From Candidatus Parcubacteria bacterium (GTDB taxonomy: Bacteria > Patescibacteriota > Patescibacteriia > PEXW01), in NCBI GenBank assembly GCA_003597955.1, contig QZJU01000020.1:13459-77458 (forward strand): DNA of 64,000 nt. The letters run 5' to 3'. Both the position numbers and the translations under genes were made by a program. Below, piece by piece: positions 2,819 to 47,787 of the stretch; positions within the stretch are counted from its first letter, which is position 1; the number at the start of each line of letters is the position of its first letter. Below the pieces are notes generated by a model, which saw only the letters and a program-made list of their open reading frames with translations, did no database searches and was not told the origin of the DNA.

Positions 2819-3124
2819 TCATCTCTTCTTGTCCCGATCCTCACTCAAATCTTGCCATTTAGGATTAAGACTTTCAATTAACTCGATTTTCTTTTTTCTG
2901 GAACCAGCCTTGATTTGTTTCTCTCGGGCAATAGCATCCTGAATATACTGAAATTCTTCATAGTAAACTAGCTTATTAATATTGTATTTTTTGGTAAAGC
3001 CTTCGACTTGCTTATGCTTGTGTTGAAATACCCTACTTTCAAGACCCCCGGTAACGCCCGTATACAGAGTGGTATTGTACTTATTAGTCATAATATAAAC
3101 ATAAAACCGTTTTGGTCTTGGCAT
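2819..3124 (-). CDS. GIY-YIG nuclease family protein (UPF0213-type)
   Basis: YVYIMTN...LYTGVT...QHK...LVYYEEF...AIAREKQIK is a classic GIY-YIG domain. Length is 101 aa. Confidence 0.85.
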   Translation of the reverse strand: MPRPKRFYVYIMTNKYNTTLYTGVTGGLESRVFQHKHKQVEGFTKKYNINKLVYYEEFQYIQDAIAREKQIKAGSRKKKIELIESLNPKWQDLSEDRDKKR

Positions 3125-22507: not shown

Positions 22508-23194
22508 ATGGATGTTGAGACAAAATGGGGTTTCCCAGTAGTCAATGCGGAAAACATTTTCCAATATTTGGAAAGTGTTAACATTAAGCCTTGGCCTCAA
22601 ATCGAGCCAACGGTCTCACTCGATGAATACCTAAAGCGAGACTTGACAGATGATCAAAAAGGCGAGCTCCGCTTCGCGCCCAAAGCAGAAGTAATGTTCT
22701 TAGAACAGCCGAATGGCCAACCTTACACGGCCTTTCGTTCCACCCAAAAACCTTGGGCCACGACCTTCTGCCTATTGCCCGGCGACCTAATCCCGATCGT
22801 GGCTGAATGGAAGCACGGCGCCGAATGCATCTCTTTGGCTCCGCCTTCAGGCTCGCTTGGCAAAGCAGACAATGGCTCCATGAAAAATTGCGCCAAACGG
22901 GAATTTGAAGAAGAAACCGGTATTGAGCTATCGGGGATTATTCCTTTAAGCCAGGCTGGGATCGCTGTCAACTGTCGAAGCTCCGGCCAGAGATTCTTCC
23001 CCCACCTTGGCATCGCAGCCACGCCAATTTCCCCAGGCCCAACTAAACTTGACCAAACCGAAAACATCAGCTTAGTTTTAATACCCCTGAAGGATTGGCT
23101 AATGCTGATTGAAGAGGGCGGAGTGGTTGAAAATTGCTCAATCTCAACGACCCTTATGGCTCTTCAGTACTTACAGCGCCTCGAGCTGAAGTAA
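22508..23194 (+). CDS. NUDIX hydrolase with an N-terminal extension
   Basis: Nudix box G...AKREFEEETGIEL. 228 aa. Confidence 0.6.
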   Translation: MDVETKWGFPVVNAENIFQYLESVNIKPWPQIEPTVSLDEYLKRDLTDDQKGELRFAPKAEVMFLEQPNGQPYTAFRSTQKPWATTFCLLPGDLIPIVAEWKHGAECISLAPPSGSLGKADNGSMKNCAKREFEEETGIELSGIIPLSQAGIAVNCRSSGQRFFPHLGIAATPISPGPTKLDQTENISLVLIPLKDWLMLIEEGGVVENCSISTTLMALQYLQRLELK

Positions 23195-23206
23195 TTGCTA
23201 TTTTTA

Positions 23207-23240
23207 AAAACCCTGTTCATGATACAGGGTTTTTTATTTT
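23207..23240 (+). terminator. Rho-independent terminator after the NUDIX gene
   Basis: Hairpin aaccctgt-tcatga-tacagggtt followed by a T6 run. Confidence 0.6.
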
Positions 23241-23863
23241 AACATCTTATAAACAATGGTGTTTAAATATTGATATGGAGCCCTTGAAAATTTTTCATTT
23301 AAATCAGTTGCCAGTGGGTTATTTTGAACATATTTAATGGCCATTTTCACAGATTCATCAGAATTTAAGATTTTAGCGTGAAATCGCGCTTGCCATGAAA
23401 AATTATCTATTTTATAAATAACCCTTAATTGTCTCACAAAATAGGATTTAATGCCGTGCATCAGGTCAGAAATTGTAAAAACCTTCGAGTTTATTAAATT
23501 GTCTAACCTGCTCTTCTGGAACCCAGCGCGGGCGGCTCTGCCCGCGCCTGGATGCAACAAAATTTTTCCAATCGCAGGCACAGCGGCCTGCGCTCGAGAC
23601 AAATTAATATTTGATAATTTCGTGGCCGCCCGCGCTGGGTTAGTTTTTAATGATCTTAGATCTTGCCAAACAATCAAATGAACATGATCCGGCATTATGC
23701 AATAAGCAATTAACAAGAATCCTTTTTTCATGCTAGTGCCAATAATAATTTTGCTCAATAAATCCGCATATTTATCATGAATAAAAAACGCTTTATCGCC
23801 TTTAATATTTGTGGTGATAAAGTAAGGAAATTCTCCCTGGTGGATTCGCCGTTGAGTCATCAA
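23234..23863 (-). mobile_element. REP-associated tyrosine transposase (RAYT; IS200/IS605 TnpA-like HUH enzyme) gene
   Basis: FPYFITTNIKGDKAFF, the HUH motif CIMPDHVHLIV, and a C-terminal SWQARFHAKILNSDESVKMAIKYVQNNPL that matches the RAYT WQ..YYEHII...NP signature. The ORF contains a 42-aa insertion that is GC-rich and flanked by inverted repeats. Confidence 0.72.
23520..23641. repeat. GC-rich palindromic insertion inside the RAYT ORF (17-bp perfect inverted repeats aacccagcgcgggcggc / gccgcccgcgctgggtt)
   Basis: Seen directly in the sequence. It keeps the reading frame and encodes NPARAATK...GAGRAARAGF. Confidence 0.7.
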
Positions 23864-23866
23864 TAA

Positions 23867-25213
23867 TCACTCCGTAAGTTTTTCGTCCAGATATTCCATT
23901 AAATCCCCTATTTCCACCCGGTCTTGTCCCATAGTGTCCCTATCCCTGACTGTAACTTTCTTGTCTTCCAGACTTTCAAAGTCCACGGTCACGCAATACG
24001 GCGTGCCGATTTCGTCTTGACGGCGGTAACGGCGGCCAATCGAGGAAATTTCATCATAAGCAGTCATAAAGTGCTTCTGCAGATTTTGATAGATCTCCAA
24101 AGCAGGCTTGCTTAACTGTTCTTTTTTGGACAAAGGCAGAACCGCCACTTTATATGGCGCCAAAGACTTGTGCAAGCGCAAAACAACTTCCACTTCTTTA
24201 TTACTTTCCGTCGTGGTTGTCCGGCCGCCTTTAATTTCTTCGTAAGCGTCCAGCAGGATTGCCAACATGGCTCGATCCACGCCGGCCGAAGGTTCGATGA
24301 CATATGGCACGAATTCCTGGTTATTTTCGTCTTTGTAAATAAAGTCGTGGGCTTTTAAATCAAAATCCGTACGGTTGGCAATGCCCATCAATTCCGCCCA
24401 GCCCTTTTCGCCGCCTTTGGCCGAGAAAGGAAAATTATATTCAATGTCCGTGGTGGCCTTGGAATAATGCGCCAATTCTGATTTGGGCTGTTTGTAAAGA
24501 CGCAAGTTCTCTTTTTTAATGCCCAGATCAATAAACCACTGATGACTTTCAACAACCCACTTTTCAAACCACCTTTCGTCATTTTTTGGTTCCACGAAGT
24601 ATTCAATTTCCATCTGCTCAAATTCCCGCGAGCGGAAAATGAAATTGCCGGGCGTGATTTCGTTGCGGAAAGCCTTGCCGATCTGGGCGATGCCAAAAGG
24701 CACTTTTAATCTGGTGGCTTGTCTGATATTTTCAAAATTTACAAAGATGTTTTGAGCGGTTTCGGGACGCAAATACGCCGTGGCCGAAGAATCTTCCACT
24801 GGACCGACAAAAGTCTTAAACATGGTATTAAAATCTTTTGCCTTCGTTATTTTCTCACTATGACAATACGGGCATTTCAAGGGCCCTGGTTCACTGCCGT
24901 CTAAATCGGCATCTTTAAATCTACGATTACAGTCTTTACACTCAATTAATTTATCCGAAAATCCCTGCACATGTCCACTTTTTTCCCACACTGTGGGATT
25001 GGTAATAATACTGGAATCCAAACCGACAATGTCATTCCTTTCCTGCACGAACCTTTGCCACCAGGACTTTTTTAAATTATTTTTGAGCTCCACGCCCAAA
25101 GGCCCAAAATCCCAAAAACCCTGCAAGCCGCCGTATTTTTCGGCGGATTGAAAAATAAAACCGCGCCTTTTGCACAAAGAAACCAACTTTTCCATTTTTG
25201 AATTCTGATTCAT
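23867..25213 (-). CDS. glyQS: Glycyl-tRNA synthetase (dimeric glyQS type)
   Basis: 448 aa with class II motifs and an insertion domain. It ends 3 nt upstream of the RAYT start. Confidence 0.9.
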   Translation of the reverse strand: MNQNSKMEKLVSLCKRRGFIFQSAEKYGGLQGFWDFGPLGVELKNNLKKSWWQRFVQERNDIVGLDSSIITNPTVWEKSGHVQGFSDKLIECKDCNRRFKDADLDGSEPGPLKCPYCHSEKITKAKDFNTMFKTFVGPVEDSSATAYLRPETAQNIFVNFENIRQATRLKVPFGIAQIGKAFRNEITPGNFIFRSREFEQMEIEYFVEPKNDERWFEKWVVESHQWFIDLGIKKENLRLYKQPKSELAHYSKATTDIEYNFPFSAKGGEKGWAELMGIANRTDFDLKAHDFIYKDENNQEFVPYVIEPSAGVDRAMLAILLDAYEEIKGGRTTTTESNKEVEVVLRLHKSLAPYKVAVLPLSKKEQLSKPALEIYQNLQKHFMTAYDEISSIGRRYRRQDEIGTPYCVTVDFESLEDKKVTVRDRDTMGQDRVEIGDLMEYLDEKLTE

Positions 25214-25302: not shown

Positions 25303-25376
25303 TGCGGGCAGGTGGAATTGCACCACCGACGTTCGGGTTAATAATCCCCGACATTCTACTCCTGAGTTATACCCGC
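25303..25376 (-). pseudogene. tRNA-like element (possible degenerate tRNA)
   Basis: It has a 7-bp acceptor stem GCGGGTA/TGCCCGC, a perfect T-arm GGTGG-TGCAATT-CCACC, and U8, A14, G15 and G18. The D-stem cannot pair canonically and the anticodon stem has a mismatch. The putative anticodon would be UAU. Confidence 0.25.
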
Positions 25377-43662: not shown

Positions 43663-44069
43663 GGGGATGTTCATAAGTTGATAGTTTGCTTTGACAATTA
43701 GCCTGCGGACCGCCTTTTTCGGGAATGGCGTAAAACTTTCTGAAAATTAGACAAATGCCAATTCATTTGTCAGCAAAGTGAAGACTGCATTGGCCAAAAC
43801 CTTTGCCGTCCCAGCTTTCGCTCCGGTTGTTGCTTAAAAACCAATAACCCATTCGCCCCGCAGCCTGATGCGGGATTCGCGAGTGTTAAATTTCAGGCTG
43901 GATATTTTTCACCGCGCGCTGAAAAATATTGAGAAACTTGCGCGCTTTGGCGTTTTGCGATCTTGGTTGTTCCCTGCGCAAAATGTCGAAAACCCTTGAA
44001 CAACCTATGTCCGAAGAAAGTTAATTGCCGGTAAACTAGACAGGGGTGCAAGACCCCTCATCTCCACCA
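43663..44069 (+). ncRNA. ssrA: tmRNA (ssrA)
   Basis: The 5' GGGGATG pairs with the 3' CATCTCC-A-CCA, giving a 7-bp acceptor stem with a G3·U70 wobble (the alanine identity element). A T-arm AGGGG-TGCAAGA-CCCCT directly precedes it. A D-analog UUCAUAAGUUGAUA follows the 5' strand. It sits immediately downstream of smpB. A candidate tag ORF ends ...FAPVVA-TAA. Confidence 0.72.
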
Positions 44070-47708: not shown

Positions 47709-47787
47709 GGGCTCGTGGTGTAGCCCGGTCTAACACGTCTCCCTGTCACGGAGAAGATCGCCGGTTCAAATCCGGTCGAGCCCGCCA
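47709..47787 (+). tRNA. tRNA-Asp (anticodon GUC), CCA encoded
   Basis: Acceptor GGGCTCG/CGAGCCC, D-stem GTGT/ACAC, anticodon stem TCTCC/GGAGA with loop CTGTCAC, T-arm GCCGG-TTCAAAT-CCGGT, discriminator G, then CCA. Confidence 0.9.

Follow-up and report, generated by a model that had tools for sequence, protein, structure and literature searches.

A probable cluster of REP-type hairpins, translated in frame, in a RAYT-type nuclease gene of a Parcubacteria genome

Introduction

How does a GC-rich palindromic segment come to lie in the open reading frame (ORF) of a transposase-like gene, and what does its presence say about the enzyme that the gene encodes? The question is raised by a 64,000-nucleotide stretch of contig QZJU01000020.1 from the Candidatus Parcubacteria assembly GCA_003597955.1 (hereafter the window; coordinates are window positions unless another locus is named). 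The window contains a gene for a REP-associated tyrosine transposase (RAYT, or TnpAREP; REP, repetitive extragenic palindrome), inside which sits a segment of about 122 bp bounded by perfect inverted repeats (IRs). An earlier note, made from the DNA letters, described the segment, suspected that the gene had lost its catalytic tyrosine and might be domesticated or inactive, and offered three identities for the insert: a nested miniature inverted-repeat transposable element (MITE), an intein-like insert, or a structured RNA on the antisense strand.

The evidence set out below points elsewhere. In our estimation, the segment is probably a cluster of REP-type hairpins lodged in the beta3-alphaC surface loop of an intact RAYT of a Parcubacteria (Candidate Phyla Radiation, CPR) genome.

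The enzyme core around the segment

The relevant parts of the RAYT gene are as follows.

23234–23863, minus strand: RAYT/TnpAREP-like Y1 HUH nuclease gene (from the ORF list, Pfam, NCBIfam and a fold match)
23678–23686, minus strand: HUH motif H60-V61-H62 in 'MPDHVHLIV' (from family alignment A1 and the E. coli TnpAREP structure 4er8)
23477–23674, minus strand: hypervariable beta3-alphaC linker, residues 64–129 (from alignment A1, the linker table and the predicted local distance difference test, pLDDT)
23378–23395, minus strand: W motif 'WQARFH' (W157–H162), equivalent to W94-Q95-P-R-F-W99 of 4er8
23315–23332, minus strand: Y motif 'YVQNNP' (Y178–P183), with Y178 the predicted catalytic tyrosine and N182 a predicted metal ligand

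Read from a TTG at 23863, the ORF encodes 209 aa; the ATG at 23860 is the more likely start and gives the 208-aa protein deposited as NCBI RJO59005.1 (from a Candidatus Parcubacteria metagenome-assembled genome, MAG). Exactly the same protein is also present in the protein collection, and two assemblies encode it. The Pfam family Y1_Tnp (PF01797) matches it with an E value of 5e-10, the GC-rich segment splitting the match into two stretches. By far the best NCBIfam family is NF047646 (REP_Tyr_transpos), which scores 68.4 bits against the whole protein and 70.0 bits once the insert is removed (cut-off 80), while IS200 reaches only 16.5 bits.

A phmmer comparison with the PDB aligns residues 156–198 with E. 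coli TnpAREP (4er8) and lays 'IKYVQNNP' on 'VDYIYINP', such that Y178 falls on Y115 and N182 on N119. These are the catalytic tyrosine and a metal ligand, respectively, of the E. coli enzyme (PMC3479197). Both residues are invariant in alignment A1 (16 sequences), as are H60 and H62, the counterparts of H59-M-H61 in 4er8. The string WQARFH, where the earlier note had looked for the tyrosine and found none, is the separate W motif, given as 'WQ' for TnpAREP subclasses in Table 1 of PMC6006769. By alignment, the catalytic tyrosine is therefore present, and with the HUH motif, Y178 and N182 all in place, the suggestion of an inactive gene loses its footing.

In an AlphaFold (AF2) model of the protein, pLDDT exceeds 90 in the core; among PDB structures, the model matches 4er8_A best (E value 1e-7; template modelling score 0.67 on the target), with IS200/IS605 transposases next. 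Judged by alignment and by this model, the enzyme core is intact, with its HUH motif, Y178, N182 and a predicted TnpAREP-like fold, and the window gene probably encodes an intact and active RAYT-type nuclease. The segment lies in the linker, which measures 66 aa here, about 4 aa in the relative P0014 and 31–75 aa in most other relatives. The loop that bears it is predicted to be disordered (residues 78–125, the insert, have pLDDT below 50). An intein-like insert does not fit this picture: no such domain is present, and the added stretch is only ~40 aa long and disordered.

Anatomy of the palindromic segment

The segment can be broken down into the following parts.

23520–23641, no strand: IR-bounded 122-nt unit, flipped relative to the gene in the ortholog (locus L001, 3220–3341)
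23520–23536, no strand: left IR arm, made up of the 5' arm of hairpin B and its first 3 loop nt on the plus strand
23523–23551, no strand: REP-like hairpin B, GCGCGGGC-GGCTCT-GCCCGCGC, with 8 perfect bp at 23526–23547 that one bulge extends
23568–23597, no strand: REP-like hairpin A, tcgaGCGCAGGC-CGCTGT-GCCTGCGAttgg on the gene strand, encoding 'RAQAAVPAIG'
23598–23624, no strand: AT-rich spacer separating hairpin A from the spare half-copy of B, a stretch that the ortholog does not conserve
23625–23641, no strand: right IR arm, in which one arm of hairpin B and 3 nt of its loop recur as a spare, inverted half-copy without a local partner

Much of the original description holds. A perfect 17-nt inverted repeat (AACCCAGCGCGGGCGGC at 23520–23536, GCCGCCCGCGCTGGGTT at 23625–23641) encloses 88 nt inside the minus-strand RAYT ORF, between the HUH motif and the C-terminal motif, and the GC content of the 122-nt unit is 57.4%, whereas the remainder of the gene has 31.5% and the window as a whole 45.8%. 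Compared with shuffled sequences, the unit folds strongly both as RNA (-66.5 kcal/mol; z -5.8) and as DNA (z -5.4). The segment is not an assembly artefact, because an independent JGI assembly (locus L135) is identical, with 0 mismatches over 2.6 kb. At the level of sequence the segment is real, and far beyond what chance would produce.

The claim that the insert keeps the reading frame needs qualification. While the ORF does run continuously through the segment, 122 nt equal 40 codons plus 2 nt, and removal of exactly 23520–23641 shifts the frame. Because 122 cannot be divided by three, the stretch bounded by the IRs is not itself what was inserted in frame.

What, then, are the repeats? On the gene strand, the order of parts is: half-copy of B, AT-rich spacer, hairpin A, short spacer, and complete hairpin B (which reads ccagGCGCGGGC-AGAGCC-GCCCGCGCtggg on that strand). 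The 17-bp 'terminal' repeat exists because the spare half-copy of B pairs with the distal arm of B. The polarity of the doublet on the gene strand can be read from the loops, CGCTGT in hairpin A versus AGAGCC in hairpin B. The core and loop of hairpin A are also found in hairpins of the homologous loci L004, L089, L106 and others.

This anatomy bears directly on the proposal of a nested MITE with 17-bp terminal inverted repeats (TIRs), mobilised by a DDE transposase. The size of ~120 bp, the perfect terminal repeats and a composition unlike that of the host gene would all suit such an element. However, its ends lack a direct target duplication, a unit of 122 nt cannot enter in frame, and a search of the 64-kb window for the 17-mer, with up to three mismatches allowed, returned the pair and no further copy. 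The 'TIRs' are two inverted copies of the hairpin B arm, and belong to a hairpin family that occurs singly and as doublets across the gene family; moreover, L004, which has no outer inverted repeat, still carries hairpins A and B at the same place. A MITE is accordingly very hard to credit.

The wider surroundings of the segment were also inspected. Generic scans for GC-rich hairpins in the 64-kb window and in the 20.6-kb L135 locus found nothing related outside the gene. Rfam searches of 23100–24000 (E values up to 10) and of the whole window (gathering threshold) gave no family for the segment, the matches being chance ones at the level of miRNAs and sRNAs.

Related hairpins across the Patescibacteria family

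Is the segment peculiar to this gene? DNA of homologs was gathered by exact protein look-up, by a scan of GTDB genomes and by a metagenome scan with a family-specific N-terminus. The GTDB scan, run with a generic HUH peptide, returned mostly distant families, with only L006–L011 close, and the query was rebuilt from the family N-terminus. The resulting family set contains 41 distinct ORFs, all on Patescibacteria-type contigs.

In this family the stretch from the HUH motif to the 'ISDLMHGIKS' helix is hypervariable, and a few peptide words recur in it: RAQAAVPAIG, APTAGCAGF and SAGTAARAR in one subfamily, RTLEKVR and RTFSNVR in another. The two sets of words come from the same palindromes, read in one direction or the other. 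Across 33 linkers, hairpins of 9 bp or longer number 45 (dinucleotide-shuffled sequences: 1.0 ± 1.0), and 22 of the 33 linkers contain at least two hairpins (0.11 expected). Where a gene has two hairpins, their loops are reverse complementary: 94 of 121 nt agree in that comparison, versus 41 of 121 in a direct one. The polarity is opposite in 21 of 22 hairpin pairs, and a conserved G.A stem mismatch tracks loop polarity in 14 of 15 cases. Once oriented, the units share the consensus ccgAGCGCAnnn-loop-nnnTGCG(C/A)Tcgg. None of the 23 six-loop hairpins has an unpaired base at the three inner stem positions, where 7–11 double changes are seen; the covariation score is 0.40 versus 0.14 in shuffled data (exceeded in 0 of 500 shuffles), and slid controls score 0.15 at most.

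These data support the idea, already present in the earlier note, that a palindromic sequence of mobile type is tolerated in the RAYT ORF and translated as an Ala/Arg/Gly-rich stretch. They also show that inserts encoding palindromes are family-wide in the homologs, just as a tyrosine is found at the catalytic position by alignment. Of the 41 distinct ORFs, 30 are open through very different inserts and 11 are broken or short.

The truncated or frame-shifted ORFs include L093, L096, L097 (3757–3996), L100, L103, L108, L109, L112 and L115. Several end within or just past the hairpin region, and L108 continues as a 368-aa fusion; some of the broken or short ORFs may instead be contig ends or genes that use code 25. 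Several contigs carry two or three copies of the family (for example, Ga0180007_10000452, Ga0315289_10002120 and Ga0265297_10000093). The linker of L122 (568–1197) has a tandem peptide repeat, four times 'QPRT(S/P)(F/I)F', followed directly by a hairpin encoding 'RTLENV', and looks like a tandem duplication of half a hairpin.

Two members place their palindromes elsewhere. L123 (267–833) and L133 (267–902) have a short beta3-alphaC linker and carry palindromes in another loop, between alphaC and the WQ motif; in L133 these take the form of cacagcggattgc-GGA-gcggtccggtgtg in two tandem copies. Because a different loop is used, intragenic insertion occurred more than once.

Four further candidates were considered for the segment and set aside: (i) a CRISPR-like mini-array, whose units would be direct and not inverted; (ii) an intrinsic terminator inside the gene, there being no T-run past the hairpins; (iii) an untranslated intervening sequence, given the 30 of 41 distinct ORFs noted above; and (iv) a kissing-loop RNA, for which the complementary loops are more simply explained as inverted copies, the stem mismatch sharing their polarity in 14 of 15 cases.

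Inversion of the unit in a syntenic ortholog

The closest comparison is with P0002 (locus L001), an ortholog with 52% amino acid identity in conserved synteny (glycyl-tRNA synthetase [GlyRS]...RAYT-EamA-DUF6390-NiFeSe hydrogenase). P0002 has a 122-nt unit (L001 3220–3341) at the same codon ('TNPARAA...'), with perfect 13-nt repeats at its bounds; here, the corresponding 13-nt half-copy is at the opposite end of the unit. An alignment of the inner 88 nt of the two units scores 60 if one is flipped and 19 if neither is; shuffled sequences average 10 and reach 37 at most. The orthologs share 31 of the 32 nt of hairpin B (97%), versus 65% identity in the 5' coding DNA. If the unit is flipped in silico, the genes of both orthologs stay open. 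The simplest reading of these sequences is that the unit was inverted in situ, between its arms, after the two lineages had split.

Could the unit be an active intragenic inverton, with its 17-bp repeats flipping within a population to give two protein isoforms? Perfect 17-bp repeats around 88 nt, frames that are open in either orientation in both orthologs, and two syntenic orthologs fixed in opposite orientations are what such a switch might look like, and intragenic invertons are known from other bacteria (bioRxiv 10.1101/2023.03.11.532203). The window unit resembles these in being a short IR-bounded coding segment whose ORF is open both ways. It differs in that the flip is seen only between species: both orientations were not found within one population, in proteins or in assemblies. 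Specifically, the in-silico flipped proteins were absent from an exact look-up in ~15 billion proteins and from a homology search; L135, one of the two assemblies with the window protein, has the same sequence and orientation as the window; and three P0002 loci from three samples encode the same protein and hence share one orientation. There is, then, no sign of an active switch in the protein collections, L135 or the three P0002 loci. In addition, the flipped region is a disordered loop, and the isoforms would have no obvious functional difference. We consider an inverton improbable.

The ortholog contains one more hairpin. Hairpin C (L001 3382–3403; gcccaggc-GGCCCT-gcctgggc, 22 nt) lies within 'TPAQAALPGR', between 'NSK' and 'VQTISDLMHG', where the window gene has none ('NSKVFTISDLMHG'). 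This looks like the clean, in-frame gain or loss of 30 nt comprising one REP unit between the orthologs, and suggests that single units continue to be gained or lost.

Hairpins outside the gene

In some relatives the hairpins lie next to the gene. L118 has three directly past the stop codon, and L009 and L092 have one copy each within ~1 kb of the gene. L119 combines a short-linker gene (2501–2956) with hairpins on both flanks (2367–2450 and 2958–3039). The 143-aa 'empty' form (P0014, L134) has a direct repeat of ~50 nt on both sides (1430–1500 and 1960–2020), which in L134 carries two 6-bp hairpins (gcggag..ctccgc and gcagag..ctctgc), a layout like that of IS200 or a REPtron. With their flanking hairpins, these relatives show the association of RAYT and REP in its classical form, whereas in most of the family the palindromes have shifted into the ORF. 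In the window, hairpins occur only within the gene, whose upstream gap of 3 nt leaves no space for intergenic ones.

The L119 ORF has an in-frame TGA after codon 21, beyond which the frame continues; its host could recode TGA (code 25-type), or the gene could be a pseudogene.

The distribution of hairpins inside and outside genes also informs two readings in which the palindromes are products or servants of the gene. The first is that the segment is a structured RNA, sense or antisense, or that its Ala/Arg/Gly-rich peptide is the selected product and the DNA symmetry incidental. In its favour, strong folds are predicted on both strands, the stems covary, and the plus-strand frame is open across the unit. 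On the other side, there is no Rfam match even at E values up to 10, and the units face either way with respect to the gene and are found outside genes too, which an element acting at the DNA level fits better than a strand-specific RNA does. As for a peptide product, the peptides are wholly different between orientations and subfamilies (RAQAAVPAIG, APTAGCAGF, RTLEKVR, RTFSNVR), and the region is predicted to be disordered. Neither version seems to us anything but highly improbable.

The second is that the hairpins serve the gene, either as the sole or master copy of a REPIN (an inverted REP doublet), making a self-contained RAYT-REPIN unit, or as an autoregulatory element that throttles expression through a very stable mRNA or single-stranded DNA (ssDNA) structure, possibly bound by the protein. 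Several results favour such a role: in nearly all members, whose proteins are 30–50% identical, the same loop is occupied by hairpins, with covarying stems; the two orthologs agree in 97% of hairpin B, against 65% of their coding DNA; the 64-kb window contains no other copy; and the mRNA structure is predicted at -66.5 kcal/mol. Against it, P0014/L134 and L119 do without internal hairpins and carry them outside, L123 and L133 use a different loop, and the 11 of 41 ORFs that are broken or short, several of them at the hairpin region, resemble collateral damage. In our view, a role for the hairpins in the service of the gene is unlikely.

A stronger form of the idea is more doubtful again, namely that in these streamlined CPR genomes RAYT and palindromes have collapsed into one unit, in which the only REPIN-like doublet sits in its own ORF, is selected as a cis substrate or autoregulator, and has arms that let the enzyme or recombination flip and recode the loop. 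If true, the RAYT-REPIN system would here be reduced to its minimum, a population of ~1, and would offer a natural test-bed for RAYT function.

Relation to known systems

We return to the reading of the segment as a REP-type hairpin cluster in an intact RAYT. Its closest published counterpart is found in the classification of TnpA-Y1 proteins by Quentin, Siguier, Chandler & Fichant (BMC Genomics 2018; PMC6006769). TnpAREP subclass 2.4 (Bertels RAYT group 4) is described there as having frame-preserving REP insertions in tnpAREP and a variable beta3:alphaC insertion; in-frame REPs within tnpAREP, between HuH and Y, are thus already published for this subclass.

The window family has much in common with subclass 2.4: (i) a Y1 HUH nuclease, probably of class 2, with 'WQ' and 'Y..NNP' motifs, (ii) a beta3-alphaC insertion of variable length made of frame-keeping REP-type palindromes, and (iii) REPs that may flank the gene too. 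The key motifs are NH[IFV]H / WQ / YIxNNP in subclass 2.4 and DHVH / WQ / YVQNNP in the window protein; the family consensus, [DN]H[VLI]H / WQ / YI(K)xNP, fits the subclass in its W and Y motifs, and mostly not in the first HuH residue. In subclass 2.4, a GT[AG]G foot of the canonical long or the 'double foot' type stands at the 5' end of the REPs, whereas the hairpins of the window family read ccgAGCGC...GCG(C/A)Tcgg and have no foot; they are also almost always an inverted doublet, and no extragenic one is present in the 64 kb of the window. Here the orthologs carry the unit in opposite orientations, and inversion is not mentioned in the passages of PMC6006769 consulted. The host clades differ, being Patescibacteria/CPR in the present case and Cyanobacteria, Bacteroidetes and 'various phyla' in that paper.

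Three distant TnpAREP relatives, L015 (from a gammaproteobacterial MAG), L045 and L083, have GTAG...CTAC 'double-foot' hairpins inside the ORF, and match the published picture of subclass 2.4. L015 contains three copies of gtagagacacgc-CATG-gcatgtctctac, with a HuH-Y distance of 298 aa and a run of N in the locus.

Taken together, what is new here is a CPR member of a phenomenon of published subclass 2.4 type, with the inversion as a small extra, and not a new kind of system. In the library searched, no paper covered TnpAREP along with CPR or Parcubacteria.

The segment also resembles REPINs or bacterial interspersed mosaic elements (BIMEs), inverted REP doublets mobilised by RAYTs (Bertels & Rainey 2011; PMC3116915, PMC3337134). 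As in a REPIN, there are two inverted REP units with a short spacer, associated with a RAYT and slightly different in their stems. A similar small stem difference separates the Y and Z REPs of E. coli BIMEs. Classical REPINs, however, occur outside genes in tens to hundreds of copies, whereas the window doublet forms a translated part of the RAYT ORF and is the sole copy in the 64 kb; dispersed copies, a defining trait of REPINs, were found neither in the window nor in the 20.6-kb L135 locus.

A looser likeness is to the Rickettsia palindromic elements (RPEs), which Ogata et al. are said to have described in 2000 as selfish palindromes lying in frame in protein-coding genes. In both cases, a small genome tolerates a palindromic repeat of ~100–150 bp in frame within an ORF, and the protein gains a peptide segment. 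RPEs, by contrast, are AT-rich, occur across many unrelated genes and have no known dedicated transposase, while here the host gene is itself that of the presumed mobilising enzyme.

How might hairpins of this kind have come to lie in the gene of a RAYT? We suggest that they are the cognate palindromes of the enzyme, whose ssDNA cut-and-join activity would have seeded them near or in its own gene. In gene-dense genomes, the only survivors would be copies that are in frame, free of stop codons and placed in a permissive loop; the 11 broken or short ORFs would be the failures of such insertion. The hairpin shape would be retained since the enzyme, or the copying process, needs the hairpin form, and the inverted arms may later have permitted in-situ inversion via recombination or template switching.

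Several points weigh against the reading of the segment as a REP-type hairpin cluster in an intact RAYT, or against parts of it: (i) the link between the RAYT protein and the hairpins is drawn from sequence; (ii) canonical REPs have a GT[AG]G foot, which is absent from these hairpins; (iii) the HuH motif is DHVH, not the NH[IFV]H given for subclass 2.4; (iv) the protein stays under the NCBIfam RAYT cut-off (68–70 versus 80 bits); (v) with no further hairpin copy in the 64-kb window, the palindromes are not demonstrably 'repetitive' or 'extragenic' in this genome; (vi) the hairpins were selected by pairing, which makes the covariation partly circular, and supportive rather than independent evidence; (vii) persistence of the palindromes may stem from the copying mechanism instead of selection; and (viii) the flip could in principle reflect independent, target-specific insertions instead of inversion in situ.

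The results matter in three ways. At the level of annotation, they correct the view of a decayed RAYT. More broadly, they extend to the Candidate Phyla Radiation the little-noticed phenomenon of a transposase-like gene with its own, presumably cognate, palindromes in frame. Finally, they provide a compact comparative data set of ~40 genes, spanning two subfamilies of hairpins, genes with empty or flanking arrangements and a single inverted ortholog pair, that could help to decide, for RAYTs generally, whether REPs are kept for or by the enzyme.

Surroundings of the gene in the window

The composition of the RAYT gene is atypical despite its conserved synteny: without the insert, its GC content is 31.5% against 45.8% for the window, and the ortholog gene has 29% outside its linker. 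A gap of 3 nt separates the RAYT start from the glycyl-tRNA synthetase gene upstream (23867–25213). At its other end, a perfect 11-bp hairpin (AAAAACCCTGT / ACAGGGTTTTT; 23206–23234) with A/T runs on both sides sits between the RAYT end (23234) and that of a convergent 228-aa ORF (23194), ~40 nt apart, and is probably a bidirectional intrinsic terminator common to both genes. Rfam identifies a tmRNA and two tRNA genes in the window, at 43663–44069 (plus strand), 47709–47784 (plus strand) and 25303–25376 (minus strand); the tRNA at 25303–25376 lies directly upstream of the GlyRS-RAYT gene pair.

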